From the IMG/VR virus record IMGVR_UViG_3300020577_007420, positions 12,380 through 76,379 of that record: a stretch of DNA of 64,000 nucleotides; one strand, given 5' to 3'. The notes under the pieces are model-generated. The model was not told where the DNA came from. It made no database searches and saw only the letters and a list, made by a program, of their open reading frames with translations. The translations under genes and the position numbers were made by a program. This document shows, one piece after another, positions 6,869 through 27,595 of the stretch. Positions within the stretch are counted from its first letter, which is position 1. The number at the start of each line of letters is the position of its first letter. The stretch is from a virus (lineage: Duplodnaviria; Caudoviricetes).

Positions 6869-6887
6869 AGTAAATTTGGTAGTTTGA

Positions 6888-8014: not shown

Positions 8015-8304
8015 GCTATTGTAAAGACTTGAAGGCAGGTGACCTTATAATGGTTGCCTACTCTAATAAGATGCACCCAGCTGTTTTTTCGAGTGTTGGT
8101 ATTAGACAAAACCCACGATTTTATCTAATGTCACAGGGAAAAATAGATTATCTCAGACAGCATGGTACAATATATAGGGATTATCTTACTAGAGATAACT
8201 GGCAAAAATCTATAGTAAAGGTTAACCCTAACGATATGGATGATTCTGTTAGGCATATGTATGATGAATTTATTAATTTATTACAGGAAAAAGGTAAACT
8301 ATGA
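8011..8304 (+). CDS. hypothetical protein
   Basis: 97 aa, ATGA-coupled. Confidence 0.6.
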   Translation: MSYCKDLKAGDLIMVAYSNKMHPAVFSSVGIRQNPRFYLMSQGKIDYLRQHGTIYRDYLTRDNWQKSIVKVNPNDMDDSVRHMYDEFINLLQEKGKL

Positions 8305-11300
8305 TTATACAGGAGCAAGTAAAGGATGTAGTAGTTATTGGAGAGGATACCTCAAAGAAGGCTAAGATAAGCCAAGATAAGCTGGCAAAGCTACAGTACC
8401 TGCTCACTAAGGGGTTATATAAGGACCCAATTACAGCAGTGATAGCTGAGTGGACTAACAATGGAATTGATAGTGTTGTTCAGGCAGGAAAGGACCCTAT
8501 TGAGAATCCGGTTTTGGTAAAGATTGAGAAAGATATAGCTGGTCAACATATATTCTCTGTAGAGGATAAAGGTGTCGGATTGGATAACCACGACTTCGAG
8601 GATATCTGTATGAACTATCTGGAGAGTACCAAAGAGAACGATAATGATACTATTGGTCATTTCGGTAAACCTATGCCGACTTGGGGAGTAATCCCCTCGA
8701 TTAAACTGGAAGAATTTTTGGAAATCCCTTGCAAATGTCAATAATTTTCCGTATATTGTAGTATGGAAAAACAATGTATAAACTGTAAAAAGGTCTTTGA
8801 ATGTAAAACTTCAAAGGCAAGATATTGTTCTGATAAATGTAGATATTCTTATAAGTATACAAACTATAAAAATCACACCTTTACATGTAAAGGATGTGGT
8901 AAAGAAGTTAAATCTAATAGGAATGGTTTACAATATTGTTCAAAAAAATGTTCTAAGATTGGTAATAAGGAAGTTACATTAGAAAAAATAGTAGAAGAAA
9001 TTGAGAAAAACCCTCAAATTTCTGCTAAGAAACTGTGTACAAAATTAAAGACTTCTTTGAGAAACTTATACTACTTAATGGAATCCTCTGGATACAGGTC
9101 CTACAAGGAACTTATAGGAGTAGTAAAAGGAGTGTACTTGGAAAAACAGAGAAGTGATACTTCAATAGCTGCCTTAAATTGTTTTGATTATATTTCATCC
9201 CTCATAGGTGAACCATACAAAACTGAGATTACTTTTGAAGGACTTATAAATCCAAGAACTGGAAGAGAATTAAGAGTAGATTGTTTGTTTGAAAAGGAGA
9301 ATCTTGTAATTGAGTATCATGGTATTCAACATTACAAAATTATCCCTTATTTTCACAAGGAGCAAAATACTCTTGAATATCAACAATTTAAAGATAGTGT
9401 AAAAGAACAATATTTTAAGGAAAGAAAGATGAAATACATTGTGATACCATATTGGTATACAGAAAAAGACATTTATGCCGAGACAATCAAAAGCCGAGCC
9501 TCAGGGAAGACTGAGGAAGGTTTAGAGACTAAGGACACTACGGTGAGCCTACAGCCTCCAGCCCCTATTTTATAGGGTGATGATATAGTCCGACACTCTG
9601 GGAAACCAGAGATAACAATTCCGATAGGAATGAAGAGTTTTTTGAGTTTAGAGAGGTCTGCTTCCTTTATTTGTAGGAAGAATGGAGTAGAGAGGAAGTA
9701 TCTGGTATATGAGGGTGCAGAGTTTGTTAATTATGACCTTGTATATGAGAAACCTACAACCGAGGAAAATGGTGTAAAAGCAGAATTAGTAATTAATGGA
9801 TGGTCCGAGAAAAACTTATTCGTAGATAAGGCAAAGCAAAAGCTGGCATATTATGATACTGCTGTTCTAATTATTGATGGAAATATTATAGAGAGCAAAA
9901 TCTTTAGAAGTGAGGATTTTCAGTACTCTTCCCTTAGTACCAGCAGCAATATACATATATGTCTTAAGGATGTATACTACGCTATAGACTGGGAAGCTCT
10001 TGGAATTAAGCCAATTGATGTGAGAATTGGATTGAGGATGTCACTTAGTGACGGAATTACTCCTACTCCTTCTAGAGAAAGCTATATTACCAACGAGAAG
10101 ACTAAGCAGCTGATTCTGGATAAAATTCAGAAGGTAGCTAACTGGTTTGTAGAGAAGTATAATGATAATGTAAAGGAGTTTGATACATTCCTTGATGCAT
10201 ATGAGCATTTAGGAGTATCTACCTATAATGTAAAAGTAGGAGATAGTTCATTCTGTATCAATCCTTTAGTTAATTATGCTACTACGAAGATAGTCACCCC
10301 AAAGGTAAAAGGGATAACTCAAAGAGATGCTGTATTCTATAAGAAGGAGAAGGACCATCTTCTTACAGGTTATCAGATTTCTGCCTATCTGGATGACTAT
10401 GGGACAATGAAGAATGCTGGAAGGAGATTATGGGTAAGTAAGGATAACTATATTATGAATCATAAAGGTAAGACCATATTGGTAAAGTCTCCTTTTGCAG
10501 GAAATGTTAAGGAATTCTTAAAGCAGAAGTATAAGAAAAGTGCATTATTTGTCTCAGATAGCGGATTTAGGAGAAAGCTAGGTGGTAAAAAAGGAGTAAC
10601 CGATTATGAGTCCTACTATAGTATTTTGCAACTCTATTCTGTTAAAAAGCACCTTTGGAGAAAGCATATAGATGAGTTTAATTTTGTTACCTCAACAATT
10701 GTTAGTACCTTTATAGATGAAACAGATGTCACTTCTGACCCAGCTTTTATCAAGTGGATGGATGACAAGAAGGAAGCACAGAAGCAGAAGAGACTTCTTG
10801 GTATTAAGAATGGCACATATAAGGGATTAAACAAGCAGTTAGGAGATGTCACGTTAGCATACTCGTATAAGAGTATAAGGGGTATATCCTTCAAGAAAGA
10901 AGCTTTCCCTATAGCAAATCTACATAAGAATCACTTTGTAACAGTACTGATTGAAGAAGGGGATGATATTGAGAAGCTCAAAGAGATTATTCCGGGATTC
11001 AACTTTACTGGTTCTACTGTAAAGTTTGCTACAGTTGGTAAGAAAGAGAGTAAAAAGATTCCAGAATGTTCACAATTCATTAATGTTAAGAAATTTATGA
11101 GCAGAGATTGTAAACCGTTTTCCAGATTGGCATCAGCCATTGTATTCCAGAAAGCTCTGGAAGAGCTAGATAGTGTAAAGAAGTATAAGTCTGAGGTATT
11201 TAGGAAGTTTGTTAGTCACTTACATAAGGATGAGATTGCCTTGAGGGGTTATGTCAACATAAATATGGCATATCTTGACGATAAGGCAAAGACTGCAATC

Positions 11301-11531
11301 CTTGAAGTGGCAGATGAGAACAAACTTTATGACTATTCTCTTTGGGATGTATATACTCGTATTAAAGAGGGAGCAAAGAAATATGACTTTATTAATCTTT
11401 TAGCAGAACCTCCTTACTATAATAAGGAAATGCAGGAAAGATACCAAAAGTTAATAAATCAGATACTCCTTTTTAGGATGAAGTATTATAATGACTTACC
11501 TGAGGGAACAAAAATTGTAATTGAAAATTAA
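8301..11531 (+). CDS. rIIA: rIIA-like protein (GHKL/HATPase N-terminus), spliced join(8301..8666,9624..11531), 757 aa
   Basis: EWTNNGIDS, VEDKGVG and STKE motifs; splicing restores IGHFG-IG-MKS; followed by an rIIB-like gene. Confidence 0.8.
8728..8759 (+). promoter_or_regulatory. intron-internal promoter for the homing endonuclease
   Basis: CTTG-N20-TATATTGT, 3 nt upstream of ATG 8763. Confidence 0.55.
8763..9575 (+). CDS. intron-encoded homing endonuclease (zinc-ribbon repeats + Vsr/EDxHD-like nuclease)
   Basis: Two CxxC...YCSxxC repeats; LRVDC...VIEYHGIQHY...KD..K...IVIPYW C-terminal domain. Confidence 0.75.
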   Translation: MEKQCINCKKVFECKTSKARYCSDKCRYSYKYTNYKNHTFTCKGCGKEVKSNRNGLQYCSKKCSKIGNKEVTLEKIVEEIEKNPQISAKKLCTKLKTSLRNLYYLMESSGYRSYKELIGVVKGVYLEKQRSDTSIAALNCFDYISSLIGEPYKTEITFEGLINPRTGRELRVDCLFEKENLVIEYHGIQHYKIIPYFHKEQNTLEYQQFKDSVKEQYFKERKMKYIVIPYWYTEKDIYAETIKSRASGKTEEGLETKDTTVSLQPPAPIL

Positions 11532-11542
11532 AAATAAAAACT

Positions 11543-13974
11543 ATGAATTGGTTTAAAACACTGTGGCTTTCCTCTGAGGAAAGAGAAATCCTTAGAAAAG
11601 CAAAAAACAACGAGTTAGTAGAGAAACCTTCTCCACTCTCAGCACTTATACCTGAGGATATGTATAAGAAACCGTACCAGAAGATTATCTATTCTAATGG
11701 TACTGTGACAGTTATCTTTAATGATGGGACTACAATTAGTAAGTCCGGGGTGGATGCTCTCTTTCTGGATAGGGTAAAGAATGCATATTCTCAATATGCA
11801 ATTGAGGAAATGATGGTGAATAAGCAGCCTGAGCCTACTAAACAGAATATTGAGACTGAGGAAGAGAGGAAGATTGTCTCAAACAATCTTGGAATATTTG
11901 ATAAGAATCCTGATTTCACGGTATCTGGTAATCAAGTATTTCTGAAAGGTGTAAATCTGGCAATGCCAGCAGTTGTTGCTGCAAGTTTTATTGAGATTCT
12001 TGAAAAGATGCAGTATGGAACACCGACTCCTACTCTTACAGACCAGCTTCAGGCTCTGAAGATGTTTTGGCTTAAGCTGGCACTGAACAGTCTTCCTCAA
12101 AGCAGGGAGGATTTGCTTGCATTTGTAAGGAAGAATGATGTAAGAATTACCAGAAATGGTAACCTTATTCTGTACAGAAGAATTGTTAGTAAGGGGAATA
12201 CCGATAAGGAACTGGTTACCTATGTAACTCAGGAGTACTATCGTATTAAGAAGAACGGTCTTGACCCTCGTGAGTACGCAATCTATAAGCTTGATGGTAA
12301 GTATGGAACTATTGATTTGAAGACATATGACCCCTTCAATAAGCCTACTGATATCATTCCTTTCTGCAATCTGCAGCAGATGTATCTTGAGTTACCTACT
12401 TACGATAGCAATGACTTTACTGCATGGCATGGTAGAGGTACATCAATTAAGTTGGGTGGCATTTACCGCATTCCTGAGGACGAAATTAATCTAGATAATA
12501 GTATCTGCGCTGCTGGTGGGCTAAGATGTGTGGCCTCTCTATAAGTAATTATGGAGTAATAAATCGAGCAAATTCGATGAAGTCTAAAAATAAATTTGTT
12601 TATGTGGTGGTAATTATGTATATTTAATTATGAAAAAATATACAAAAATTACTAAAGAATTAATAGATAAAGTCGTTCTTTTAAATAAAAATGGTCATTC
12701 CTATAGTGAAATAGGAAAGATTTTAGAATTATCCTCAGTAAGGGGAATTCAAAATTTTATAAGAAAGAATAAGATAAAGTTTGTTAACAATTCCTCTCTT
12801 ATAACAATAAGGGATAAAAAATACAAAAGCCAAGATGATTATTTTGATATAATAGATAATCATAAAAAGGCATATATATTAGGATTTATTTATAGTGATG
12901 GGTGTGTTTATGACAATAAAAGATTTGGATTTTGTATATCCGAACAAGATTCTGAAATCTTAGATTTTATAAGACAAGAAGTTTGTCCAAATAAACCCTA
13001 TAAAGTAATAAATCACTTAAATAAAAAACCTCAGGTTGTATTAAGAATAGGAAATAAAAGAATTGTTAAAACACTTATTGAGAAGTGGGGAGTTGTTCCT
13101 AATAAAACAAAGAATCCAAAATTGGTATTCCCAAAAATAGAGGATTCTTTTATATGGTCTTTTTTACGAGGAATTGTTGATGGAGATGGTCATATAAGAA
13201 TTAGAACAACTAAATCATTTTATGTAGAAATATGCATGTCAGACTTAAATTTTCTATCTGATTTACAAAAATTTCTAGATAAGAATAATATGAAATCTAA
13301 AATAAAAACAATAGTTGGTAAAACTTGTAATTATTATAGAATATATATTCCAAACTCAATAACTTTTTTGAATAAACTTTATGAAAACAAAGACTTTTTC
13401 TGTTTAAAAAGAAAACTTCATAAATATTTAATTATTCACGATAATATCGAGCTAACTTCTTCAATTACGAAAGGTGAAGAAGTAGTGTAACGCATAGAGG
13501 ATGAATAAATATAATTCCTCCACGAGTGTTCGACATCCTTATAAATAGGATGAAAATATATGCTGAACTTTAGAGAAATCTAAAGAACTAAAGGATAAAA
13601 AGCCTTTAGGTTAACAAATTTGACATGCTGCAGCTGTAGATTATGATTATTCTGGATTTGGAGACGTTCCTGTTGTAGTACTGGTAAATCCCTCAAAGGC
13701 TATTACTGTTCCTCTTGGGGAAACAGGAAAGCTGAGAACTACTGAGATGTTTGTTGCTTGTGTAAACGACAAACCCCATGGTACTCACTTTGATGAGAGT
13801 GCTATTGCTGCATTTGATGAAGAATATCATGATTTGACACTGGAAGAACTTGAGGAAGCTGCAAAGACAAAGAACTTTAGCAACCTGTCTGTTCAGGATA
13901 AAGTTCCTGCAATTTCTCTTGTAGACCTTAACCAAATCAGACAACTTCTGAGGAGCAGGATACAGAAGGTTTAA
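11543..13974 (+). CDS. rIIB: rIIB-like protein, spliced join(11543..12522,13623..13974), 443 aa
   Basis: DLLAFV...ITRNGNLILYRRI motif; splicing restores CAAGG-L-H, matching the rIIB C..GLH motif, followed by VVLVNP. Confidence 0.78.
12595..12626 (+). promoter_or_regulatory. intron-internal promoter for the LAGLIDADG endonuclease
   Basis: TTTG-N20-TATATTTA, 3 nt before ATG 12630. Confidence 0.6.
12630..13490 (+). CDS. intron-encoded double-motif LAGLIDADG homing endonuclease
   Basis: AYILGFIYSDG and SFLRGIVDGDG. Confidence 0.9.
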   Translation: MKKYTKITKELIDKVVLLNKNGHSYSEIGKILELSSVRGIQNFIRKNKIKFVNNSSLITIRDKKYKSQDDYFDIIDNHKKAYILGFIYSDGCVYDNKRFGFCISEQDSEILDFIRQEVCPNKPYKVINHLNKKPQVVLRIGNKRIVKTLIEKWGVVPNKTKNPKLVFPKIEDSFIWSFLRGIVDGDGHIRIRTTKSFYVEICMSDLNFLSDLQKFLDKNNMKSKIKTIVGKTCNYYRIYIPNSITFLNKLYENKDFFCLKRKLHKYLIIHDNIELTSSITKGEEVV

Positions 13975-13982
13975 TGATTAAG

Positions 13983-14015
13983 AAGTGCCCATGGTTATTC
14001 TGTGGGCACTTTTTT
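13983..14015 (+). terminator. rho-independent terminator
   Basis: AAGTGCCCATGG-TTATT-CTGTGGGCACTT plus T tract after the rIIB stop. Confidence 0.75.
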
Positions 14016-14027
14016 AAATTTAATATT

Positions 14028-14741
14028 ATGAGAATCATAGCATTAGGTGATATACATGGTCACAAATCGTGGAAGGATATTGTAAACAATGAGCAATTTG
14101 ATAAGATTGTATTTGTTGGAGATTACTTTGATAGTTTTACAGTGAAAACTGAAGACCAAGTAAATAACTTCCTTGATATAATTGAGTTTAAGAAATCTAG
14201 ACCAGATGACGTGATTCTCTTAATAGGAAATCATGACCATCATTATTTTCCCTTTGTAGGATATACTGGTACATCTGGTTATCAACAAGCAGGTAAGTTC
14301 TTAATAGAACCTGTACTTAACGAGAATAAGGACTATCTACAAATGGCTTATCAATTTGATAATGTGCTATTTACACATGCTGGGTTTAGCCCTCTGTGGG
14401 CAGGTGCTGTTTTAGGAGACGATTGGGAAAAAGAATTGACAGGAAATTATGCGGATTTGATTAACGATATATGGCTACATAAGCCAAAAGCATTCTGTCA
14501 TAACGGAAGGGACCCATATGGGGATGATAAATACCAGACTCCTATCTGGATACGTCCAAGAGCATTGATGTATATAGCAAGACCTATTAGCAGGAAGATA
14601 ATTCAGATAGTAGGTCATACTTACCAGAACCAGATTGACATAAAGGGAAAATCTACAGGAGGAAGATACTATTTTATTGACTGTCTGCCAAAAGAATACC
14701 TTATCATAGATAATGGTAAGTTTGAGGTAGGAAAATTATAA
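14028..14741 (+). CDS. calcineurin-like metallophosphoesterase
   Basis: GDIHG, GDYFD, GNHD, THAG and GHT motifs; start at ATG 14028 (the track start crosses the terminator). Confidence 0.85.
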   Translation: MRIIALGDIHGHKSWKDIVNNEQFDKIVFVGDYFDSFTVKTEDQVNNFLDIIEFKKSRPDDVILLIGNHDHHYFPFVGYTGTSGYQQAGKFLIEPVLNENKDYLQMAYQFDNVLFTHAGFSPLWAGAVLGDDWEKELTGNYADLINDIWLHKPKAFCHNGRDPYGDDKYQTPIWIRPRALMYIARPISRKIIQIVGHTYQNQIDIKGKSTGGRYYFIDCLPKEYLIIDNGKFEVGKL

Positions 14742-14743
14742 CT

Positions 14744-15847
14744 ATGAGTAAGAAATCGTTTCCAATTTTATTTAAATATGATACAAGAGGGAGAATACAG
14801 CAGTGGCAAATTCATGTAAAGGATGACCATTTTTGGACAGAAGAGGGTATAAAGGGAGGTGCAATAACTACCTCTCTACCAACCTATTGTAAAGCAAAGA
14901 ATATAGGAAGGGCAAATGAGACTACTCCTCAGGAACAGGCACTAGCTGAAGCCCAATCTAAGTGGCAGAAGAAAGTAGATAAGGGATATAATGAAGTCCT
15001 GACAGATAAGAAGAAGTTTTTCGAGCCTATGCTGGCTCATGAGGTAAGCAAGTATGAGAAGCTACTGTTTACTGTACCTACTTTTATACAGCCAAAATTA
15101 GATGGACTTAGATGTATTTCACAAGATAATACACTGATGTCCAGAAATGGGAAGCCGTATTTGGCATGTCCACATCTACATCAGGATAGGTTTACGTTGG
15201 ATGGTGAACTGTATAATCATGAGTTCCACGACGACTTTAATAAGATTGTGAGCCTGTGTAAGAAGCAGAAACCCACAGCCGAGGACCTAAAGGAAAGTAT
15301 GCAGAAGGTACAGTTCTGGGCCTATGATATGCCTGAGATTGAGGGAGAGTTCTCTGAGAGATATAAGGCTCTTGAGAAGGCTATCAATGAGTTAAAGAAG
15401 GCACAAGGAAAGTGTCCCTATAAGTTGGTTCCTACATATCGTGTTCATAATCAAGCGGATGTGGAGAAATATCACGAGAAGTTCCTTGAAGATGGATACG
15501 AGGGTTCTATCTTACGTCTTGATTTGGGAGAATATGAGAATAAGAGAAGTAAGCAGTTATTGAAGAAAAAGGACTTTGTGGATGAAGAATTTACAATCGT
15601 AGGGGCAGAAGAAGGCGAAGGAGGCAGAGCTGGAACAATTGGTTACTTTATTATGGCACACGATAAGATTAAGGATAAGACCTTTAAGTCAAATGTCAAG
15701 GGAGACTTTGAGTATCTGGCAGAGGTTTGGAAGGACAGGAAGAAATATATAGGCACAAAAGCTACAGTAAAGTACTTTAACAGGACTCCAGATGATGTTC
15801 CTCGGTTTCCGTATATTATCAAACTAAACAGAGAAGAATATGAATAG
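14744..15847 (+). CDS. ATP-dependent DNA ligase with N-terminal WGR-like domain
   Basis: Motif I QPKLDGLRC; LDGELY; FWAYD; YEGSILR; KRSKQLLKKK; OB-fold tail VKYFNRTPDDVPRFP. Confidence 0.9.
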   Translation: MSKKSFPILFKYDTRGRIQQWQIHVKDDHFWTEEGIKGGAITTSLPTYCKAKNIGRANETTPQEQALAEAQSKWQKKVDKGYNEVLTDKKKFFEPMLAHEVSKYEKLLFTVPTFIQPKLDGLRCISQDNTLMSRNGKPYLACPHLHQDRFTLDGELYNHEFHDDFNKIVSLCKKQKPTAEDLKESMQKVQFWAYDMPEIEGEFSERYKALEKAINELKKAQGKCPYKLVPTYRVHNQADVEKYHEKFLEDGYEGSILRLDLGEYENKRSKQLLKKKDFVDEEFTIVGAEEGEGGRAGTIGYFIMAHDKIKDKTFKSNVKGDFEYLAEVWKDRKKYIGTKATVKYFNRTPDDVPRFPYIIKLNREEYE

Positions 15848-16268
15848 TGTAATAGCAGCCGATGTTAATTCTCTACTACAGACAACGGGAGGTACTATAG
15901 TATCTCCCGTTTACGTTGGTACAGTTAGTACGAGTTTACAGTATGTTGTTCCTCAACCAACAACTACGCCTCCGCCCAAAAGAAGGTTGACGGGTAAACC
16001 TAAAGGTAAAACGGAAGAACAACAGAAGGAAAACATAAGGAAAAGAGTAAGCTATAGATGGATTGTACAAGAAGCTCAGTATTTTAGAAGTAAAGGAGTC
16101 CCTCTGCACTCAATTTCTGTAGTAATGAAGTATATCATTGAACTAAGATGTTCGTACAAAGGAGGATTTGCCTATAATTCTAATAGGCATTGGGCAAGAC
16201 AGAGTCTTTATTTGTTCCTTGGGGATATTAAAGACCATAAAATGGTAGAAGAACTTAAACTTAATTAA
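15840..16268 (+). CDS. hypothetical protein
   Basis: 142 aa; Pro/Thr linker followed by a basic region. Confidence 0.55.
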   Translation: MNSVIAADVNSLLQTTGGTIVSPVYVGTVSTSLQYVVPQPTTTPPPKRRLTGKPKGKTEEQQKENIRKRVSYRWIVQEAQYFRSKGVPLHSISVVMKYIIELRCSYKGGFAYNSNRHWARQSLYLFLGDIKDHKMVEELKLN

Positions 16269-16270
16269 AT

Positions 16271-16543
16271 ATGAATAATTTAAAAGTAGGAGATTTAATA
16301 TACTTTAAGGATTACTTCTGTGAGATTTTTGCTATACAACCTGATAAAAGTGGTGAGTCTCGTTTTGATATACTTAAAATTCACAGAAAGTATAGAAGTG
16401 ATGGCACAAAAATGATGTCCATTTGGACATCATGGGTATATAGGTGCTGGGTAAAGTCACCTGATGAGAAGTTTGACGATGAAATTAAAGAACGTATTCA
16501 ATTATTAGAAATCTATAAAAATTTAACAAGTAAAAAATTGTAG
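16271..16543 (+). CDS. hypothetical protein
   Basis: 90 aa ORF. Confidence 0.6.
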   Translation: MNNLKVGDLIYFKDYFCEIFAIQPDKSGESRFDILKIHRKYRSDGTKMMSIWTSWVYRCWVKSPDEKFDDEIKERIQLLEIYKNLTSKKL

Positions 16544-16544
16544 T

Positions 16545-16664
16545 ATGAGTACAAAATTATATATAGTAGTAAAAGCTGATACAAAGTTTTGGAAAGGAAA
16601 AAAGTTTTCTGAAGAACATAAACAAAACTTAAGAAAACCAAAAATAAGAAAGAATGCAAAATAG
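16545..16664 (+). pseudogene. 39-aa mini-ORF carrying a NUMOD3-like DNA-binding motif (endonuclease remnant)
   Basis: MSTKLYIVVKADTKFWKGKKFSEEHKQNLRKPKIRKNAK. Confidence 0.45.
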
Positions 16665-17844
16665 ATATGTCAAACTTATTATGGTTGATGAAAATAATCG
16701 AAATAAATACTATGAGATGAATTGGGATGGTGGCAGTAATTTTACAGTAAAGTACGGCAGAGTTGAGAGCACTACGCAGACTGCCACCTACCCCTATAGT
16801 AAGTGGTCATCCAAGTATAATGAGAAGATTAGGAAGGGGTATAAGGATGTTACAGATTTAGTTTCTGTAAAAGTTGAAGAGAAGAAACAGGAGAAGGAGA
16901 CATTTGCAGCTATCAAGGATAGGTTGGTAAATGAATTCCTCAACTTGATGAAGAGCTACACAGATAAGCTCGTAAAGGCTACGTATAGTGTTAAGGCTGA
17001 GGCAGTTAGCCAAAAGCAGGTAGATGAGGCACAGAAGCTCATTGATGAAATTAATGCTATGGATGCCAAGCTGGTTAGTAATATTAACCAGAAGTTAACA
17101 GAACTGTATATGGTTATTCCAAGATATATGGGACATGTAAGAGATTACTTGCTTCCTAATATCAGTCTGGCCAAACATATGCAACAGGAGCAGGATAATT
17201 TAGATGCCATGGCTGCTCAGGTTAGCATGATTAAACCTAAGACCAAGAAGGAGTTAACTGCCGAGAAAAAGAAGGCACAGACTCTTCTTGATAAGTTAGG
17301 TATTACTAATATGAAGGAGTGTAGTGGTGTTCCTAAAGAGGTGGAATATCTTATTAAGCAAAATCATGGTAGAAAGGTAAATGCCATATTTGAGTTGGAA
17401 AAACCAACAGAAGATGCTATCTTTGAGAGCTGGATGAAGAAACAGAAGAATAAGAGTACTCGTATTCTTATTCACGGTACACGCTGTACCTCTGTCATTC
17501 CTATTCTAGAGATAGGATTGAAGATTCGTCCTACTGGTAATTTCCAGTTTAGTGGTAAGGCATATGGAGACGGTAACTACTTCTCAGAACATATGCACAA
17601 ATCATTAGGGTATACGGGTTACGACGCTGATAAGGTCATACTTGTATATGAAGTACATACAGGTAATCCCTTTACATATGATGGATGGTTTAGAGGAAAC
17701 TCTTTCCCATTGAATTATAAGGAGCTATCTAGTAGAGGATATGATTCTACTTATGTAAAAGCTGGTCATGGTCTTATGAATAGTGAGATTATTGCATACA
17801 AAGAGGAACAAGCAAGAATTAAATTTATCATTTGGTTAACCTGA
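16654..17844 (+). CDS. PARP-family ADP-ribosyltransferase (WGR + regulatory helical + catalytic domains)
   Basis: NRNKYY...KYGRV...EKIRKGY (WGR); LTELYMVIP (regulatory); ILIHGT, GKAYGDGNYFS...KSLGY, NSEIIAY (H-Y-E triad). Confidence 0.85.
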   Translation: MQNRYVKLIMVDENNRNKYYEMNWDGGSNFTVKYGRVESTTQTATYPYSKWSSKYNEKIRKGYKDVTDLVSVKVEEKKQEKETFAAIKDRLVNEFLNLMKSYTDKLVKATYSVKAEAVSQKQVDEAQKLIDEINAMDAKLVSNINQKLTELYMVIPRYMGHVRDYLLPNISLAKHMQQEQDNLDAMAAQVSMIKPKTKKELTAEKKKAQTLLDKLGITNMKECSGVPKEVEYLIKQNHGRKVNAIFELEKPTEDAIFESWMKKQKNKSTRILIHGTRCTSVIPILEIGLKIRPTGNFQFSGKAYGDGNYFSEHMHKSLGYTGYDADKVILVYEVHTGNPFTYDGWFRGNSFPLNYKELSSRGYDSTYVKAGHGLMNSEIIAYKEEQARIKFIIWLT

Positions 17845-17847
17845 TTA

Positions 17848-17879
17848 TTTGGTAAATTCAAATAATTTTCGTATATTTG
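17848..17879 (+). promoter_or_regulatory. Bacteroidota sigma-A promoter, perfect consensus
   Basis: TTTG(17848-51)-N20-TATATTTG(17872-79). Confidence 0.8.
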
Positions 17880-17898
17880 TCCTATAAATATTCAGGAT

Positions 17899-18552
17899 AT
17901 GTACAAAAAGAAAATTACCAGTAAACTATCAGATTTAACAGGTCAAACCTTTGGAAGACTTACAGTTATAGGAATAACCTACTCAGAAACTCTTAAACAT
18001 AGAGTTTGGGAATGTAAATGTAAGTGTGGAAAAATAGTAGGTGTTCCTTCAACTTCTCTTACCAAAGGTAGAACTATGTCTTGTGGGTGTTTGAGAAACG
18101 AAAATGCACCTAACATCAACCGTTCTCATGCAGATACAGGAAAGGCTATCTACAATAGGTGGCTTGCAATGAGAAATCGTTGTAAGCACAACAAAAAATA
18201 CTATGTTGATAGAGGTATTACAGTCTGTAAAGAATGGAATGACTATCTGAACTTCAGGAAAGATATGGTTGAGAGCTTCTTGGTTCACAGTAGGGAACAT
18301 GGTGAGAGAAATACAACTCTTGAAAGGATAGATTCTAACAAAGGATACTACCTTGAGAATTGCAGGTGGGCTACTCCAACTGAGCAAAACCAGAATACAA
18401 GGACTCCCTACAAAATCACCAATTACAAGAAGCTAAAAGTTTTCCTACAAGAGTTAGGAAAGCTAAAAGGTATACAAATAACCCTCTCAGAAGAGGAATT
18501 TTTAACACTTTCTTATAACATAAGGAAGAAAATTTATAAAGAGAAGAATTAA
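17899..18552 (+). CDS. free-standing HNH-type homing endonuclease
   Basis: DLTGQTFGRLTV, WECKCKCG, SCGC, RGITVCKEW, TLERIDSNKGY.LENCRWAT..EQNQN. Confidence 0.85.
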   Translation: MYKKKITSKLSDLTGQTFGRLTVIGITYSETLKHRVWECKCKCGKIVGVPSTSLTKGRTMSCGCLRNENAPNINRSHADTGKAIYNRWLAMRNRCKHNKKYYVDRGITVCKEWNDYLNFRKDMVESFLVHSREHGERNTTLERIDSNKGYYLENCRWATPTEQNQNTRTPYKITNYKKLKVFLQELGKLKGIQITLSEEEFLTLSYNIRKKIYKEKN

Positions 18553-19248
18553 ATGAAAGTAAAAATTGGCACTGAGGTGCAAATAATGAGACCGTTCAAA
18601 ATATTCCGTCAACTTAATGATGGAAGCTATGATGCATGTGATGCACATGGAAATTGTCTCAAAGTAAACCCAAATGAAATTAACATTTTAACTAAAAATC
18701 AATCAGAAATGAAAGCAATGAAAGATGCAGTGCTCAAAGTAGCACGAGACTTAGCAAGGGCAAACAACACAGTTACTACTCTGGAAATCAAGACAGAATT
18801 GAGGAGAGATTATCCCTACTACTTCTGGGACCAAGCAACTGTAAGCAATTATATGGCTCAGTTGGCAGGTGATGGTATCTTTAACTACACAGACAATGGT
18901 ACATACCGCACCTATAGTCTGGCTAAGACCCCTGCAACTAAGACTATATCAAGTGCAAAAACACTTAATATAGTTGTTACAAAATCTCTTGGAGTGAGTG
19001 GTAGTGCAGGTGTAGTTGGTACGGCTGGTACTAAGAGTAAGAAGAAGTCTAAGAATGTAGTTACGAGAAATAGTGTTATACTTTTCTCATGTAGTCCAAA
19101 ATTTGAGTCAGTGACTCTGGCAAGTGGAAAGGTAGTGGATAAACACACTATCCGTGGCCAGAAGAAATCTCCTGAAGGATACATTACTCCTAAACTGCAT
19201 AATGTTACGGCAATTACAGTTAATGGAATTACTTATCAAGTTCAGTAA
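18553..19248 (+). CDS. hypothetical protein with possible winged-helix segment; an internal start at MKAMK is possible
   Basis: 231 aa; TTLEIKTELRRDYP...QATVSNYMAQL is helix-turn-helix-like. Confidence 0.55.
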   Translation: MKVKIGTEVQIMRPFKIFRQLNDGSYDACDAHGNCLKVNPNEINILTKNQSEMKAMKDAVLKVARDLARANNTVTTLEIKTELRRDYPYYFWDQATVSNYMAQLAGDGIFNYTDNGTYRTYSLAKTPATKTISSAKTLNIVVTKSLGVSGSAGVVGTAGTKSKKKSKNVVTRNSVILFSCSPKFESVTLASGKVVDKHTIRGQKKSPEGYITPKLHNVTAITVNGITYQVQ

Positions 19249-19270
19249 TCAATCTGACAACCAAGTTAAT

Positions 19271-19300
19271 AGAGGGGGCTATACACCCCCTCTTTTCTTT
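19271..19300 (+). terminator. rho-independent terminator
   Basis: AGAGGGGG-CTATACA-CCCCCTCT plus T tract. Confidence 0.8.
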
Positions 19301-19304
19301 TTAT

Positions 19305-20012
19305 ATGGATTTAAGTTATTTTGACAAAAAAGACCTATTAACTAGCGGAAAAAGTAATACTAAGACAGCTAAGAATAGCACACCTACGTATTATCTATCT
19401 CTCCAACCTACAAATTTGAATACAAAGAAAGAGAATTTATGTAAGTTCAGTACTAAGGAATGTCGTGCTGCCTGCCTTCAATTTGCAGGCAGACAATCAT
19501 TCTCTAATGTAGTACAGAGCAGAAGCAGAAAGACTGAGTTCTTTGTTAACCATAAAGGTTTGTTTATCAAGAAGTTATGGAAAGAGTTGGAAGAATTAAA
19601 TGAAGGTAAGGCTGCTATAAGATTAAATCTATTAAGTGATGTAGATTGGGAAATGGAGTTTTTATCTGTAGATAAGTCTTTTAAAATGGAAGATTTATCT
19701 AATATTCAATGGTACGATTATACAAAAGACCATTTTAAGATATACAGAGGTGTTCCTAAAAATTATAATTTAACCTTCTCATTTTCAGGACATAACTGGA
19801 AGCACGCTGACCATTTCCTTAAAAATAAGATGGCTAACGTGGCTGTAGTATTTAAAAATGCATTACCTTTGGTATGGCAGGGCTATTCCGTAATTAACGG
19901 TGACGAGAGTGATGAGAGGTTTTTAGACGATAGAGGTGTAATAGTCGGGCTCAAGTATAAAACTCCAAAAGGAGTTAAGTACGAGAAAACAAAGTTTGTA
20001 ATAGATGAGTAG
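19305..20012 (+). CDS. GP88-family phage protein (Cys cluster)
   Basis: NLCKFSTKECRAACL..AGR, IRLNLLSDV, YDYTK, YNLTFS, NVAVVF, NGDESDERFLD, IVGLKYK. Confidence 0.7.
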   Translation: MDLSYFDKKDLLTSGKSNTKTAKNSTPTYYLSLQPTNLNTKKENLCKFSTKECRAACLQFAGRQSFSNVVQSRSRKTEFFVNHKGLFIKKLWKELEELNEGKAAIRLNLLSDVDWEMEFLSVDKSFKMEDLSNIQWYDYTKDHFKIYRGVPKNYNLTFSFSGHNWKHADHFLKNKMANVAVVFKNALPLVWQGYSVINGDESDERFLDDRGVIVGLKYKTPKGVKYEKTKFVIDE

Positions 20013-20658
20013 AAAAACTAAAAAGAAATCAACAAGAAAAACTCCAACTAAAAGAATTAAGAAACCAACTGAGCCAAAGGTTGGAAAATATATAGGAGTA
20101 GAGTACGAGAGCTTTTGCGAATTATCATGTTTGTTCTTTGCAGAAGAATTGATGAAGGATGGATATGTAGAGAAAATAGAGAGGAGTCCTTCATATATGT
20201 TATGTGACCCTGTTCAGAGCACATATGCAGTACAATTAAAACGAGGAAGTAAGCATGAAACTCAAACAATCAGTAATGGTGTAACCTACACCCCAGACTA
20301 TGACATTTATTTTACAGCTAAAGCTTTAGATAAATTCTGTTGGGAGTTAGGTAGTGGGACAAAGTGGAATAAGAATTTACTTGTTGCACAAAAGCTTAAT
20401 GTTCATGGTAAGATTCTCTATAGAGCATGTATAGAGGTCAAACCAGATTTCAGTAGAAATTCAACAACTCCGAAGAGTGTGCAGAGCATGAAATGGCTTA
20501 TGCAGAGACATGGAGTATTTGTTAACCTATTCCGTCCGAACCGTATCTTTGAGGGACTGTTCACACCGGGGAAATATCTCATTACAGAGAGAGGTACTCC
20601 TCGTAAATTAAAGTTCCGTCCAAAGAGTTTAGGGGAATATTTAAAACATAAGAAATGA
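20005..20658 (+). CDS. PD-(D/E)XK endonuclease (resolvase-like)
   Basis: YTPDY...IEVKP motif. Confidence 0.6.
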   Translation: MSRKTKKKSTRKTPTKRIKKPTEPKVGKYIGVEYESFCELSCLFFAEELMKDGYVEKIERSPSYMLCDPVQSTYAVQLKRGSKHETQTISNGVTYTPDYDIYFTAKALDKFCWELGSGTKWNKNLLVAQKLNVHGKILYRACIEVKPDFSRNSTTPKSVQSMKWLMQRHGVFVNLFRPNRIFEGLFTPGKYLITERGTPRKLKFRPKSLGEYLKHKK

Positions 20659-20996
20659 GTGATGGAGATTTTCAGGTACCAGATGGATTAATGCCATGCA
20701 TTGAGAAACATTTTCATTATCCTATGTCTACACTAGGTACACATCTTATAAATCATGAGAGAATAAGACAAATCAATTATAAGAAAAGAACTATAGAAGA
20801 TGACTATAAGTTGAATGCCGATTATCAACTAGTTGATGCAGCAATTAAGCTATTAAAGGGTGGACAACATGAACCTCCTGAGGGATGGGATAGTGAGATG
20901 TGGAATAAGATGCTAGCTAAAGATGACTATAAAAGACTAGCTATAGCTGGTGCACTTATAGCTGCAGAGATTGATAGACTAAATTATACACAATGA
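20655..20996 (+). CDS. conserved phage hypothetical protein
   Basis: ERIRQI...AA...RLAIAGALIAAEIDRL pattern recurs in phage proteins. Confidence 0.6.
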   Translation: MSDGDFQVPDGLMPCIEKHFHYPMSTLGTHLINHERIRQINYKKRTIEDDYKLNADYQLVDAAIKLLKGGQHEPPEGWDSEMWNKMLAKDDYKRLAIAGALIAAEIDRLNYTQ

Positions 20997-22141
20997 TAAA
21001 AGGGAAGAAAGTTCAACCAAGGGTAATTGTTGATAAACCAAACGTGAATTATAGAAAGCTGGATGCCCTCAACCAGTCTATGATTAAGTTGTTTGACAGT
21101 GACCCTGTAAGATTCTATGAAGAATTTAAACTTGGTAAGAGAAGAAGAGATAAGAAGAATGTAGCTACTACAATTGGAGATTTAGTAGACTTCTATCTTC
21201 TTTCCTGTAAAGGTGACGAGTTAGAATTCAATAATAGACTTGAGGAGAAATTTGTACTATTTGAGGGAAATAAGGGAAGTGGACAAGTATTTGTTTTGGC
21301 TGATTATCTATTTGAGGAAGCAGAAAGTTGTATGAATGATAAGGGAGAAATAACCTGTTCGTTTGATACAATGTTTACTGTAGCCTTCAATAGAGTTCAG
21401 GCAGATGGCAAGTACAGAGGAAAGGATAAAGATAAAGTGCTGGAGGATTTTTATGAGAATGGTAAGTCTTACTATGACAAGAAGATTGAGAATATCGGTA
21501 AGACAGTTGTTGATGCAAGTCTTGTTGATAAAGCAAGATTTGTAGCTGACAGACTTAAATCAGATGACTTCACTAGGCATATCTTTACAGAACATGATGA
21601 TATTGAGAGACTTACGCACTTTGCTATAGAGTGGAAGTATCCTCTTCCAATGAATAAGTATTATCCATGTAAGAGTGAGTTGGATATTCTACTTATAGAC
21701 CATGACCATAGAATAATCCAACCAATGGACTTAAAAACTACATATGATAACGAGTCATTCGATTATATGTATATCAAGAATGCATACTATTTACAGAATG
21801 CATTTTATGTAAGAGCTGTAGAAGAGTGGGCAAAGACATCTGGATTAGATGGTTATGAGGTTCGTCCTATGAAGTTTGTTGTAGGAGATACCTCTGCAAA
21901 TAACAGACGACCTCTCATCTATGAAACATCTAATATGGATGTAGAGAATGGATTGCATGGATTTTCCCTAAGAGGTACCTACTATAAGGGTGTTGATGAG
22001 TTGATAAATGATATTGTGTGGGCTGAGGAACAAGACATCTGGAATTGTAGTAGGGATGCTTATGGGAATAATGGTAAAATGAAACTAAATATTCAGTACG
22101 ATGGAGAAGAGCAATATGAGGAGGATGGCCAATTAGTTTAA
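20993..22141 (+). CDS. PD-(D/E)XK exonuclease (RecE/Cas4-like)
   Basis: LNQSMIK; KSELDILL...MDLKTT; YYLQNAFY. The true stop may be earlier (see frameshift finding at 22101). Confidence 0.75.
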   Translation: MIKGKKVQPRVIVDKPNVNYRKLDALNQSMIKLFDSDPVRFYEEFKLGKRRRDKKNVATTIGDLVDFYLLSCKGDELEFNNRLEEKFVLFEGNKGSGQVFVLADYLFEEAESCMNDKGEITCSFDTMFTVAFNRVQADGKYRGKDKDKVLEDFYENGKSYYDKKIENIGKTVVDASLVDKARFVADRLKSDDFTRHIFTEHDDIERLTHFAIEWKYPLPMNKYYPCKSELDILLIDHDHRIIQPMDLKTTYDNESFDYMYIKNAYYLQNAFYVRAVEEWAKTSGLDGYEVRPMKFVVGDTSANNRRPLIYETSNMDVENGLHGFSLRGTYYKGVDELINDIVWAEEQDIWNCSRDAYGNNGKMKLNIQYDGEEQYEEDGQLV

Positions 22142-22304
22142 TACTAACTTTTATATTTATAACATTAAAGCTAGTTGGTGAGATTACTTGGAGTTGGTGG
22201 TGGGTATTTGCCCCATCTGGATACCGATAGCATTAGTTTTGTTTGGACTATTAATATTTGTAATATATGTTACTAGGGATAAATGGAAAAATTGGTTCAG
22301 GTAA
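22101..22304 (+). pseudogene. small two-TM membrane protein (WSWWWV.API family) with two compensating frameshifts
   Basis: MEKSN | GGWPISLILTFIFITLKLVGEITWSWWWVFAP | IWIPIALVLFGLL...WFR; one extra base near 22117 and one missing C at 22211-14. Confidence 0.6.
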
Positions 22305-22338
22305 TTTGCTAATTTGAGAAAATATAAATAATATTATT

Positions 22339-23034
22339 ATGTCAATAATAGGTATATCAGGTAGAATTAATAGCGGAAAGGATACTGTAGGTAAAATTAT
22401 ACAGTATCTAGATGCAAAATCAAAGAAAGAGAGAGAAAAAGAAATAGCACCAAAGTTATTTCTTCCTGATGTTGAGTATCCTACATTTGAAGATTGGTGT
22501 AAACCAAGACTTCATGAAAGTGGATATGATATAGGACACCTCTCAATGTATGAGATGCATTCTAACTCTTGGGTTATTAAGAAGTTTGCAGGAAAACTAA
22601 AGCAGATAGCAACAATTCTTACAGGTATCCCTATAGAAAAGTTTGAGGACCAAGAGTTTAAGAAGACTGAGATGGATGATGTGTGGGCAATCAATAGAAT
22701 ACCAGTTACTGTCAGACAATTTCTACAACGTCTTGGAACTGAAGCAATTAGAGATAATCTACATACAAATGCTTGGGTAAATGCACTACTTGCAGACTAT
22801 AAGGGTGATAATTGGATTATTACAGACTTGAGGTTCCCAAATGAGTTTGCTGCACTAAAGAGAAAGGATGCTCTTCTTATAAGAGTTATAAGACCCGGAT
22901 TAGAATGTGCAGACCATATCTCCGAAACAGCACTTGACTCATATGTATTTGATGAAGAAATAGTTAATGATGGAACAATAGATGATTTAATAAATAAGGT
23001 TAAAACGATGATGGAGAGAAGGAATTTACTCTGA
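22339..23034 (+). CDS. deoxynucleoside monophosphate kinase
   Basis: IIGISGRINSGKDT P-loop; FAGKLK; RQFLQRLGTE; ITDLRFPNE; HISET. Confidence 0.85.
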   Translation: MSIIGISGRINSGKDTVGKIIQYLDAKSKKEREKEIAPKLFLPDVEYPTFEDWCKPRLHESGYDIGHLSMYEMHSNSWVIKKFAGKLKQIATILTGIPIEKFEDQEFKKTEMDDVWAINRIPVTVRQFLQRLGTEAIRDNLHTNAWVNALLADYKGDNWIITDLRFPNEFAALKRKDALLIRVIRPGLECADHISETALDSYVFDEEIVNDGTIDDLINKVKTMMERRNLL

Positions 23035-23051
23035 AAAATTAACAATATTAT

Positions 23052-23083
23052 TTTGATAATTTGGGAGTAAGACCTTATCTTAG
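23052..23083 (+). promoter_or_regulatory. probable promoter upstream of RNR
   Basis: TTTG-N20-TATCTTAG. Confidence 0.5.
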
Positions 23084-23090
23084 TATTCCG

Positions 23091-23121
23091 AGCAGGGGTT
23101 AGCAATAGCCCCTGCTTTTTT
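23091..23121 (+). terminator. terminator-like hairpin between promoter and RNR start
   Basis: AGCAGGGG-TTAGCAATAG-CCCCTGCT plus T tract. Confidence 0.7.
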
Positions 23122-23140
23122 AATCTAAATACGTAAACAT

Positions 23141-26100
23141 ATGCAGAAAGGAAAGAAGTTTTTGAGTGATTTAAAGTTATATTCCGACTATTTTAAATGG
23201 AATGAAGAATTAGAGAGATACGAGAACTGGAACGAGGCTTGTGAGTCTATTATAGATGGTCATAGGAGAAAGTATCTAGGTCTGGATATCGAGAAATACC
23301 TTAATGAAGCTGAGAAAGGTATCAAAGAAATGCTGGTATTAGCCAGCCAGAGAAACCTACAGTATAGATATCCTCAAATTATGAGAAATAATGAGAGAAT
23401 GTATAACTGTTTTTCTGGTGATACTAGAGTTATTACACAATGTGGAGTTAAAACATTTGATGAATTATCAAAAGAACCAGCTGGTAATGAGATTAAAGTT
23501 TGGACACATAAAGGAAGGTGGATGAATGCTAATCTAGGTTACTACGGAAAACAAAAATTGCAGAGAGTAACTATAGCTTATGGTAATAATAGACAAGAAA
23601 TAAGAGTAACTCCTAACCATAGATGGCTATTGTCTGATAATACAGAAACCACCTCCTTAAAAGTTGGAGATAAACTATTGAAAGTTAATGATATATTTAA
23701 TTTTGACTTTGATACGGCCTCTCCTTTTCAAAAGTTATATTGGTGTTATGGTTATGTATATGGAGATGGAACAAAAGTAAAAAATGATGGAAAATATACA
23801 CATAGTATGGTAAGATTGTGTGGAGAACAAGTAAAATTTGCTAGTAGATTTGAAGAAATGGGATTTTCCTCATCGTCTTCATTATCTATTGATGGAGATT
23901 TAATATTTTATACAGGAAAATACCTAAAGACATTACCTTCTTTGAATGAAAACAACGATTTACTTCAGGCATTTATATGCGGATATCTTGATGCAGACGC
24001 TACAAAGAATAAAAGCAAAAGTAAAAAAGCTTATGATTATATACAATGCTCAGATATAGAAGGGATTGAGTTTCTCAGAAGGGCACTACCTTTATGTGGA
24101 TTTTTTATCTTAAAAGAAGATGACTTAACTGGTCAAGAAACAAATTTTGGAGTAAGACCTTATACTATTAAGTTTTCTATAACGAATACTTTTAATGGAA
24201 AAAATCCGAACATAGAAGTAGTCGATATTCAAGAAGATGTGATAGATGATGTTTACTGTTTTATGGTGGATGAAGATAAATCTTTTACTCTATCTGGAGG
24301 TATAGTTACTGGTAATTGTGTGGGTGTATTATTTGATAAGAACGATTACTTCCAGAAGTGTTTTCATGTACTCCTGAGTGGATGTGGATTGGATTTTTCT
24401 ATTAGGAGAATGTTTATAGATAAACTGTCTCCCATCTACAGAAGAACTCTTGGTACTAAGACGTTCGTAATAGATGATAGTATAGAGGGATGGTCTGATG
24501 CACTTGGAGTATTAATGAGTAGCTATCTTGGTGATAATCAACCATTTCCAGAATATGCAGGATATGAGATTAAGTTTGATTATTCTCTTATCCGTCCTAA
24601 AGGTTCCTATATTTCTGGTGGGTTTAAGGCTCCCGGACATGAAGGACTGAAGCAGAGTCTTGAGAGAATTGAGAGCCTTCTTGAGAAATGGATTACTAAT
24701 GAGGGTAGCGTAATCAGGCCCATCTTAGTATATGATATTATCATGCATGCAGCTAATGCTGTATTGAGTGGTGGTGTTAGAAGAAGTGCATGCAGTGTAC
24801 TTATAGATGAGGATGATGAGGAGATGATTTACGCAAAGATTGGAAACTGGAGAGTTGAGAATCCTCAGCGTGCCAGAAGTAATAACGCTGTAGGTTTAAT
24901 CAGAAGAGAGTTTTCATATGATAAGTTAAAGGAAATCATTGACTTAAATCAGGGAGATAACGATATATCCTTCATATTTGTATTTGATGAATATGAGGTA
25001 AGTAATCCTTGTAGAGAGATAACTTTCCGTCCAGTATTGGAGGACGGCAGAAGTGGCTTCCAAATGTGTAATCTAACCGAGATAAATGCCTCTAAGTGCA
25101 CAACAGAACAGGAGTTCTATAGAGCATGTAGAGTTGGTGCTATTTTGGGTACCTTACAGGCAGGATATACAGATTTCCCATATCTAGGAAGAGATACCGA
25201 AGAGATTGTTAGAAGAGAGGCTCTGCTTGGTGTGTCTATTACAGGATGGATGAATCAGCCATATCTCTTTGATGCTGAGATACTTAGAACTGGTGCACAC
25301 ATTGTTGTAGGAACAAATAAGGAAGTAGCTGCAGCTATAGGTATAAATCCTGCAGCCCGTACAACAACTGTTAAACCTTCTGGTAATGCATCTGTGGTAC
25401 TAGGTACAGCTAGTGGTATCCATCCTGAGCACAGTGAGCAGTATTTCAGAATAATGCAGCTAAATAAGGAGAGTGATACGGCTAAATATCTTGAGGAAAA
25501 TATGCCATTCCTACTTGAGGAAAGTGTATGGTCAGCTACAAACAGTGACTACGTTGTATTTGTGCCCATAGTTAATCCTAAGACTGGTCTCTTCAAGAAA
25601 GATATGAAGGGAGTTAAACATCTAGAGTTAATTAAGCTGGTACAGGAAAACTGGGTCAATGCTGGTACAAATGTAGAGGCATGTCTCAAACCTTGGCTAA
25701 GACATTCTGTATCATGTACAGTAATCATTGATAATCAGGATGAAATAACTAAGTACATTTATGATAATCAGGATTCCTTTAAGGCAGTTTCCTTCCTCTC
25801 AGATTATGGTGATAAGGACTTTAACCAAGCTCCCTTTACATCTGTTCTGACTATGGATGAGATTGTTAAGGAGTATGGAGATGGTGCACTATTGGCCTCA
25901 GGATTGATTGTAGATGGATTGCACGTATTTGACCAAAACCTGTGGGAAGCCTGTGACTTAGTATTAGATACTGATAAGAAGATTAAAATTACGGGCACAA
26001 GACAAGAGGTCTGGCTGAAGGGTGACTGGATTAAGAGGGCTAAGAAGTTTGCTAAGAATTACTTTAAGGGTGACTTAAGAAAACTTGTATACTGTCTCAA

Positions 26101-26257: not shown

Positions 26258-26289
26258 TTTGATAATGATTCTAAAATTTAGTAACTTTG
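26258..26289 (+). promoter_or_regulatory. Bacteroidota sigma-A promoter, perfect consensus
   Basis: TTTG(26258-61)-N20-TAACTTTG(26282-89). Confidence 0.7.
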
Positions 26290-26481: not shown

Positions 26482-26482
26482 T

Positions 26483-27550: not shown

Positions 27551-27559
27551 TGAGAAAAA

Positions 27560-27591
27560 TTTGGCAGTTTAATGATTATTTCGTATATTGG
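27560..27591 (+). promoter_or_regulatory. promoter for the GIY-YIG endonuclease
   Basis: TTTG-N20-TATATTGG, 4 nt before ATG 27596. Confidence 0.6.
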
Positions 27592-27595
27592 ACTT

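Follow-up and report, generated by a model that had tools for sequence, protein, structure and literature searches.

A virus record of 76 kb in IMG/VR (IMGVR_UViG_3300020577_007420), estimated to be 60% complete and so with about 40% of the genome missing, was analyzed over a stretch of 64,000 nucleotides (positions 12,380 to 76,379 of the record), referred to here as the window. An ATG-initiated open reading frame (ORF) on the plus strand, bounded exactly by window positions 16654 and 17844, specifies a 396-amino-acid protein that matches the PARP family of poly(ADP-ribose) polymerases. It is followed by a free-standing homing-type endonuclease gene and then by a gene for a 231-amino-acid protein, here called the partner, whose family recurrently adjoins PARP in other phages. 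An original prediction, made from the DNA letters, had described the enzyme as phage encoded, and its location in a virus record of this size bears that out.

Domain architecture and active site of the phage PARP

The PARP catalytic domain was recognized by Pfam in the single sequence (E = 3.5e-15; score 56.5 bits, cut-off 26.7), and residues 1 to 395 matched profile positions 1 to 382 of 383 in PHROG 23333 (E = 4.5e-71). The Pfam WGR domain was sub-threshold in the single sequence (17.8 against 22 bits); 62 of 80 family members matched it, the best with an E value of 1.2e-10. Against the PDB, phmmer aligned residues 117 to 341 with a fragment of PARP1 comprising helical and ADP-ribosyltransferase (ART) segments (E = 1.4e-8), pairing the phage motifs LIHGTR, GNYF, and KSLGY with LWHGSR, GIYF, and KSANY of PARP1. 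An alignment of 80 diverse full-length relatives that are 29 to 60% identical (alignment A1) yielded a profile that matched PARP2 and PARP1 chains through the WGR domain, the helical domain (HD), and the ART, with E values from 4e-38 to 1e-34. Profile positions 11 to 72 aligned to the PARP2 WGR domain, and the correspondence with the PARP2 HD began at position 75.

An AlphaFold2 model built with A1 had a mean pLDDT (predicted local distance difference test) of 92.8 and a pTM (predicted template modeling score) of 0.90. Its top Foldseek matches were PARP1 and PARP2 chains composed of WGR, HD, and catalytic domains on DNA double-strand breaks (E = 2e-19). In VIA comparisons, residues 1 to 396 of the model superposed on residues 543 to 1006 of human PARP1 with a Z score of 26.6 and a root mean square deviation (rmsd) of 3.4 Å over 352 aligned residues, while PARP2 on a DNA break gave a Z score of 23.3; for the overall fold, Z ranged from 23 to 27, and the catalytic domains of PARP3 and PARP4 scored about as well as PARP1 against the phage model. 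The HD took part in this superposition (model residues 85 to 396 on PARP1 residues 662 to 1006) and was clear in structure, although Pfam PARP_reg matched just 1 of the 80 members. Sequence, profile, and structure therefore agree on the predicted arrangement of WGR, regulatory helical, and H-Y-E ART domains, as in PARP2, PARP3, and bacterial PARPs. A comparison with PARP1 and PARP3 by hidden Markov model (HMM) and structure, suggested along with that prediction, is covered by the profile matches to PARP1 and PARP2 and by the structural Z values above.

The H-Y-E triad of PARP1 and PARP2 corresponds to H274, Y309, and E378 of the phage protein, and K316, S317, and Y320 correspond to the K-S-x-x-Y motif, in both the phmmer and the profile alignments. 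Columns H274, G275, Y309, and Y320 of A1 are invariant (80 of 80), K316 is kept in 78 sequences, and S317 is kept in 74. These six residues and E378 make up an intact NAD+ site, including the Ser and Tyr of the nicotinamide pocket. E378 lies within the motif NSEII (residues 376 to 380) and aligns through the A1 profile with the catalytic glutamate in the PARP2 motif NEYIVY. Conservation extends to the WGR part, where N17, K18, Y20, G35, R36, K58, and Y63 are invariant; position 34, the tyrosine of the YGR that stands in place of WGR, is tyrosine in 53 sequences, tryptophan in 19, and phenylalanine in 5. The part of the ART that joins the Tyr and Glu regions is about 25 residues shorter than in PARP2.

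The glutamate of NSEII had been taken to suggest poly- or DNA-ADP-ribosylation. Its retention stands, with E378 present in 78 of the 80 sequences; the triad alone, however, does not predict poly activity. It is needed but insufficient, as PARP3 and PARP4 carry an H-Y-E triad yet act as mono-transferases, and sequence cannot decide between mono and poly. A further alternative is that the protein keeps the PARP fold as a non-catalytic binder of DNA breaks, for which an ART shorter than those of PARP1 and PARP2 might be cited. We regard this as highly improbable: four active-site residues are invariant and K316, S317, and E378 are 93 to 98% conserved among sequences as divergent as those of A1, and a dedicated TARG1-type eraser is genetically linked to PARP in related phages. 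Overall, sequence and model indicate a PARP1-3-type core that is reduced to a minimal WGR domain, HD, and ART, and the gene probably encodes a genuine, active phage PARP.

Compared with human PARP2, PARP3, and the PARP1 core, the phage protein has the same three domains in the same order, with the same triad and K-S-x-x-Y motif. It differs in being 21 to 22% identical to them, in lacking zinc fingers, a BRCT domain, and an N-terminal tail, in carrying YGR for WGR, in having an HD too divergent for Pfam PARP_reg, and in its shorter ART; there is no HPF1, and the eraser linked in phages is of the TARG1 type, not PARG. The compact WGR-HD-ART layout is shared with bacterial PARPs (Herpetosiphon aurantiacus, Clostridioides difficile CD160, and the Cytophagales/Clostridiales "clade 1"). 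These also have the YGR variant and three conserved WGR patches, as here, and their HD is often invisible to Pfam (García-Saura et al., PMC5966428). In vitro, the Herpetosiphon enzyme showed DNA-dependent activity and the C. difficile enzyme was active (PMC8120803). For the characterized bacterial enzymes, cognate poly(ADP-ribose) glycohydrolases are the reported working partners, whereas PARP in the phage loci is linked to a winged-helix protein, joined in relatives by a TARG1-like macrodomain.

The family is well represented in cultured and uncultured phages. By tblastn, it was found in seven Cellulophaga phage records (34% identity, 100% coverage, E = 5e-62), where it is annotated "poly (ADP-ribose) polymerase," and in more distant versions in Xanthomonas, Klebsiella, and Stenotrophomonas phages. 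The protein of Cellulophaga phage phi4:1 (gp031, AGO49444.1) has borne a PARP annotation in GenBank since 2013 and was included among viral PARPs by Perina et al. in 2014 (PMC4245714). A word-indexed metagenome search returned 602 PARP relatives, many of them called PARP by JGI. Representative clusters with E < 1e-30 numbered 291, and relatives occurred on 192 IMG/VR contigs, mostly of 100 to 430 kb. A single-protein scan of the species-representative genome set recovered no close bacterial homologue. PARPs in jumbo phages were mentioned by Iyer et al. (PMC7824862), and the PARP family is one of the most frequent viral ARTs (Iyer et al., PMC9503650). The contrast first drawn with the R-S-E ARTs of phages is accordingly upheld in part: the H-Y-E site and best matches that are all PARPs set the protein apart, but such an enzyme is not unusual in a phage. 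Since the family is already annotated, surveyed, and in its own PHROG, the find itself is ordinary.

A conserved winged-helix partner gene

Gene neighborhoods were compared across 80 IMG/VR loci plus the window, each with 10 kb on either side; ORFs were called and clustered, loci were collapsed to 52 lineages at PARP identities of at least 85%, and gene families were extended by iterated HMMs. In 29 of the 52 lineages, a same-strand member of the partner family adjoins PARP, usually as the next gene after it, with gaps of −37 to +22 nucleotides (nt). The window departs from this arrangement in that an HNH endonuclease gene splits PARP from the partner, the HNH stop codon abutting the partner's start codon. 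A reciprocal search with the partner alignment (A3) retrieved 26 IMG/VR loci, in 25 of which PARP was directly adjacent; at the remaining locus, only about 940 nt of contig were available on the side where PARP would normally sit. The pairing also extends to a cultured phage, as phi4:1 gp030, a "hypothetical protein" encoded just downstream of PARP, belongs to the partner family (E = 7.4e-28). The PARP and winged-helix pair is thus tightly linked genetically and present in phi4:1, and it is absent from descriptions in the literature that we searched, which did not cover subscription-only papers.

The 231-amino-acid partner of the window was modeled with a mean pLDDT of 80. It comprises a small N-terminal beta region, a predicted winged helix at residues of about 50 to 125, a disordered linker rich in Ser, Thr, and Lys (residues 124 to 168), and a small C-terminal domain (residues 169 to 231). 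The VIA-wide search placed the winged helix on FurB with a Z score of 10.6 and an rmsd of 1.8 Å over 71 residues, and its top 50 matches were all winged-helix proteins; Foldseek returned BlaI, MecI, ArsR, and Fur. Sequence searches were less informative. The window protein had no Pfam match, the partner profile had no sequence match in the PDB, and the ESM Atlas offered no usable match. WYL_2 (PF10902) was weakly detected in the C-terminal domain of 3 of 29 members (best E = 7e-4), the window protein not being among them, and winged-helix proteins dominated the structure search. No literature link between WYL_2/DUF2693 and PARP was found within the same search scope. Separately, a second, weak match of the partner-family HMM (16 bits, E = 2.9e-4) fell in an open frame spanning window positions 2 to 298, which may be a winged-helix paralogue.

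Gene block, ligase linkage, and ADP-ribose genes

The plus-strand arm that carries PARP consists of typical phage DNA-metabolism genes by Pfam and PHROG. Its co-directional genes include a metallophosphoesterase, the ATP-dependent ligase, PARP, an exonuclease VIII-like protein, a deoxynucleoside monophosphate kinase, and RecA, and the same arm holds a GP88-family protein and several homing endonucleases (Table 1). No tRNA genes were found in the window. A megablast search of window positions 10000 to 30000 against 50,697 phage records gave no nucleotide-level match, and hence there is no close cultured relative among them.

Table 1. Features of the PARP locus, in window coordinates
Feature	Position	Strand	Evidence and remarks
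Promoter-like site	13620-13647		Consensus match only
Calcineurin-like metallophosphoesterase	13974-14741	+	Pfam Metallophos, 4.8e-11; head of the co-directional block
ATP-dependent DNA ligase	14744-15847	+	Pfam DNA_ligase_A_M, 4.9e-15; PHROG 114, 7.5e-76; three genes upstream of PARP
PARP gene (396 aa, WGR-HD-ART)	16654-17844	+	ATG ORF; Pfam; PHROG 23333; predicted fold
WGR domain, residues ~1-68	16654-16857	+	Modeled as four strands plus one helix; YGR (Y34 G35 R36) replaces WGR
Helical regulatory domain, autoinhibitory type, residues ~85-215	16906-17298	+	Model helices 90-110, 120-135, 141-154, 172-192
ART catalytic domain, residues ~216-396	17299-17841	+	Motif and profile alignment to PARP1/2
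ART residue H274	17473-17475	+	
ART residue Y309	17578-17580	+	
ART residues K316/S317/Y320	17599-17613	+	
ART residue E378	17785-17787	+	
HNH homing-type endonuclease, free-standing	17899-18552	+	PHROG 374 HNH endonuclease, 3e-53; between PARP and partner
PARP-partner gene (231 aa)	18553-19248	+	Conserved adjacency to PARP; winged-helix model
Terminator-like hairpin and T run	19271-19293	+	Found by consensus scan; stem of 8 bp, 6 of them GC; shortly after the partner gene; pattern match only

Several smaller features of the arm were recorded. A 39-codon ORF seen by eye at window positions 16545 to 16664 overlaps the PARP start by 11 nt and contains GKKFSEEHKQNL, which is similar to the NUMOD3 motif of homing endonucleases; the ORF may be a remnant of one. 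More homing-type endonucleases lie at positions 12630 to 13490, 27572 to 28138, and 28493 to 28987 (LAGLIDADG, GIY-YIG, HNH/NUMOD4). The GP88-family gene (PF17338, E = 3e-32) occupies positions 19305 to 20012, just past the hairpin that follows the partner, and its family occurs near PARP in 8 of the 52 lineages. The metallophosphoesterase gave a weak PADLOC match (PDC-S10, E = 5e-5). In the relative L015, described below, the island likewise begins with a Metallophos gene, and the association of such a gene with PARP is shown only at these two loci.

In 13 of the 52 lineages, an ATP-dependent DNA ligase gene is found no more than 4 genes from PARP, and in 19 it is no more than 10 kb away; in the closest relative (L003) ligase, PARP, and partner are contiguous in that order. 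The phi4:1 locus resembles that of the window in having a PARP of the same family and length class (34% identical over its full length), the same partner family, and an adjacent ATP ligase. It differs in gene order, which is PARP-partner-ligase (gp031, gp030, gp029) there and ligase-x-x-PARP-HNH-partner here, and in its shorter partner of 154 amino acids. The linkage of ligase and PARP is real in some lineages and is not general. Other recurrent neighbors of PARP are RNA ligase, Pol III alpha, DnaG, a PD-(D/E)XK nuclease, an ERCC4 nuclease, and dUTPase; the RNA-ligase-family gene (PF09414 with a PHA02142 OB domain, for example at positions 7023 to 8111 of L051) is found a few kb from PARP in 11 of the 52 lineages.

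This setting bears on whether the enzyme acts upon the host. T4 Alt, ModA, and ModB are likewise phage-encoded, NAD+-using ADP-ribosyltransferases; they differ in belonging to the R-S-E clade, in having neither WGR domain nor HD, and in acting as mono-transferases on host proteins, Alt being packaged in the virion. By this precedent, and by the suggestion that jumbo-phage PARPs act alike (PMC7824862), the phage PARP could be a takeover effector that redirects the cell by ADP-ribosylating RNA polymerase, translation factors, or further proteins of the host, possibly with chains and independently of DNA breaks. We consider that role rather improbable. The protein has kept its WGR and autoinhibitory helical domains, both of them strongly conserved, the gene sits in a DNA-metabolism block and not by head or packaging genes, and PARP is paired with a predicted DNA-binding protein. 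In phi4:1, moreover, the virion proteins flagged by tandem mass spectrometry include neither PARP nor gp030.

Genes that would reverse or feed ADP-ribosylation were found in relatives. Directly upstream of PARP (position −1), 11 of the 52 lineages carry a 141-amino-acid family that is a TARG1/OARD1-type macrodomain, its profile matching human TARG1 over the full length with an E value of 1.5e-33. Because this family falls below the Pfam Macro threshold, a first eraser search with PF01661 was negative, and surveys based on Pfam would miss it. A "writer without eraser" reading, based on the PF01661 blank in the record and four relatives, was rejected when a dedicated profile (A4) detected TARG1-like macrodomains in all three near-complete relatives (E = 1e-34 to 1e-45). 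A relationship between the partner and the 141-amino-acid family was also rejected (hhalign probability 0.1). The phage TARG1/OARD1-type macrodomains span 135 to 220 amino acids (positions 9546 to 9971 of L074, 7994 to 8515 of L014, and nine other lineages) and mostly stand at −1 of PARP. Neither bacterial PARG (PF10021) nor ARH/ARH3-type hydrolases (PF03747) were found in the record and four relatives, three of which are 97 to 100% complete; the eukaryote-type PARG family PF05028 was not searched. Complete poly(ADP-ribose) systems, such as those of Herpetosiphon or Deinococcus, pair the writer with an eraser of the PARG type. An eraser of the TARG1 type would suit marks joined to protein by ester bonds (Glu/Asp) or to nucleic acid through phosphate.

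NAMPT-like genes were present in three of the four relatives and NADAR in two. In L015 (IMGVR_UViG_3300012286_000299, 100% complete), positions 4755 to 11795 form a co-directional NAD+/ADP-ribose island, which runs from the metallophosphoesterase through a phosphoribosyl pyrophosphate (PRPP)-synthetase-like gene, a TARG1-like macrodomain gene (6427 to 6969), NADAR, an ORF, a nucleoside deoxyribosyltransferase-like gene, and NAMPT to PARP and the partner. NAMPT as a general upstream neighbor of PARP was rejected, as it is directly upstream in this locus only.

These genes speak to the plain NAD+ drain that the original prediction had listed among possible roles. Break-triggered, runaway consumption of NAD+ would shut down host metabolism or exclude superinfecting phages, much as animal cells lose their NAD+ when PARP1 is hyperactivated. 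The proposal fits poorly with an enzyme that retains its autoinhibitory domain and whose relatives carry both NAD+ salvage genes and erasers resembling TARG1; the eraser, together with NAMPT and the PRPP-synthetase-like gene found directly upstream of PARP in relatives, points to supply and turnover instead. The ATP dependence of the phage ligase is neutral in this respect. We therefore hold a drain or suicide function to be very unlikely.

A candidate break-activated module

Among the roles first proposed, one tied to DNA ends or nicks fits best in our analysis. With moderate confidence, we favor the reading that the locus encodes a DNA-break-activated, reversible ADP-ribosylation module in phage DNA metabolism and not a simple host poison. 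If the phage enzyme works like PARP1-3 and like the pair of bacterial PARPs studied in vitro, its WGR domain would bind a DNA nick or end, and binding would loosen the HD, which would otherwise block access of NAD+. The ART could then ADP-ribosylate PARP itself, nearby proteins (the partner included), or DNA termini. The winged-helix protein would serve as a dedicated DNA-bound cofactor, substrate, or reader of PARP, and the same nicks may also be a target of the neighboring ATP-dependent ligase. The TARG1-type macrodomain that related phages encode next to PARP would remove the mark, and their NAMPT and PRPP-synthetase genes would supply NAD+. With its many homing endonuclease genes in this arm, the genome should often suffer self-inflicted DNA breaks, and the module may mark or manage breaks in phage DNA as it replicates and recombines.

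An anti-defense or end-protection role overlaps this reading. Here, PARP would sense ends or nicks in the phage DNA, or the host nucleases that attack them, and would shield the phage genome by modifying either the termini or RecBCD-like, restriction, or other defense nucleases, with NAD+ salvage in relatives belonging to the same arms race. The end-sensing WGR architecture agrees with such a role, and TARG1 and DarG-type macrodomains work on ADP-ribosylated nucleic acids as well as proteins. The company of NAD+ and ADP-ribose genes favors it, since NAMPT, NADAR, and macrodomain genes lie beside PARP in one relative and these families have been discussed as phage counter-defense tools (PMC9503650). 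On the other side, PARP and the partner match no PADLOC model, in a library of defense rather than anti-defense proteins; the conserved neighbors are repair and replication genes, not known anti-defense genes; and a co-encoded eraser speaks for a reversible signal, not a permanent cap. We judge an anti-defense role unlikely, though still worth considering.

Several observations weigh against the break-activated module. At about 25 residues shorter near the acceptor side, the ART may differ in its acceptor-site chemistry, and the partner may be no more than a conventional transcription factor. The sites that flank the block from phosphoesterase to partner, promoter-like at one end and terminator-like at the other, are consensus matches only. 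The ligase and PARP genes are 16 to 45 kb apart in the three near-complete relatives; the lineages compared cannot be counted as independent, and modularity is in any case a feature of phage genomes. Profile A4 found no TARG1-like macrodomain in two incomplete records, among them the 76 kb of this phage (about 60% complete), and NAMPT was likewise not found in these 76 kb, from which about 40% of the genome is missing. Finally, no experimental study of any phage PARP was found in the literature searched.

A more far-reaching form of the break-activated module can be put forward tentatively, and we think it improbable as a whole. In this form, ADP-ribosylation in large phages would be a reversible, self-contained circuit that serves the phage's own DNA, in which a minimal break-sensing PARP would be the writer, the winged-helix partner with its Ser/Thr/Lys-rich tail a linker-histone-like substrate or reader, and the TARG1-type macrodomain the eraser, with NAD+ salvage attached and the PARP-partner pair as the conserved core. 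Damage signaling by eukaryotic PARP1-3 would then have a counterpart in viruses, which might also be its evolutionary source.

The question of what functions PARPs serve beyond eukaryotes has so far been approached through assays of only two enzymes, both bacterial, and the phage family is large. To this question, the analysis contributes a PARP and winged-helix pair that occurs in a cultured phage, a linked TARG1-type macrodomain that was missed by Pfam, and a testable model of reversible, break-linked ADP-ribosylation. The partner and the TARG1-type eraser offer concrete candidates for substrate, reader, and eraser. If the module does manage DNA breaks, PARP-style damage signaling would extend to the viruses of bacteria, and this would bear on proposals of a phage or bacterial origin of eukaryotic PARPs.

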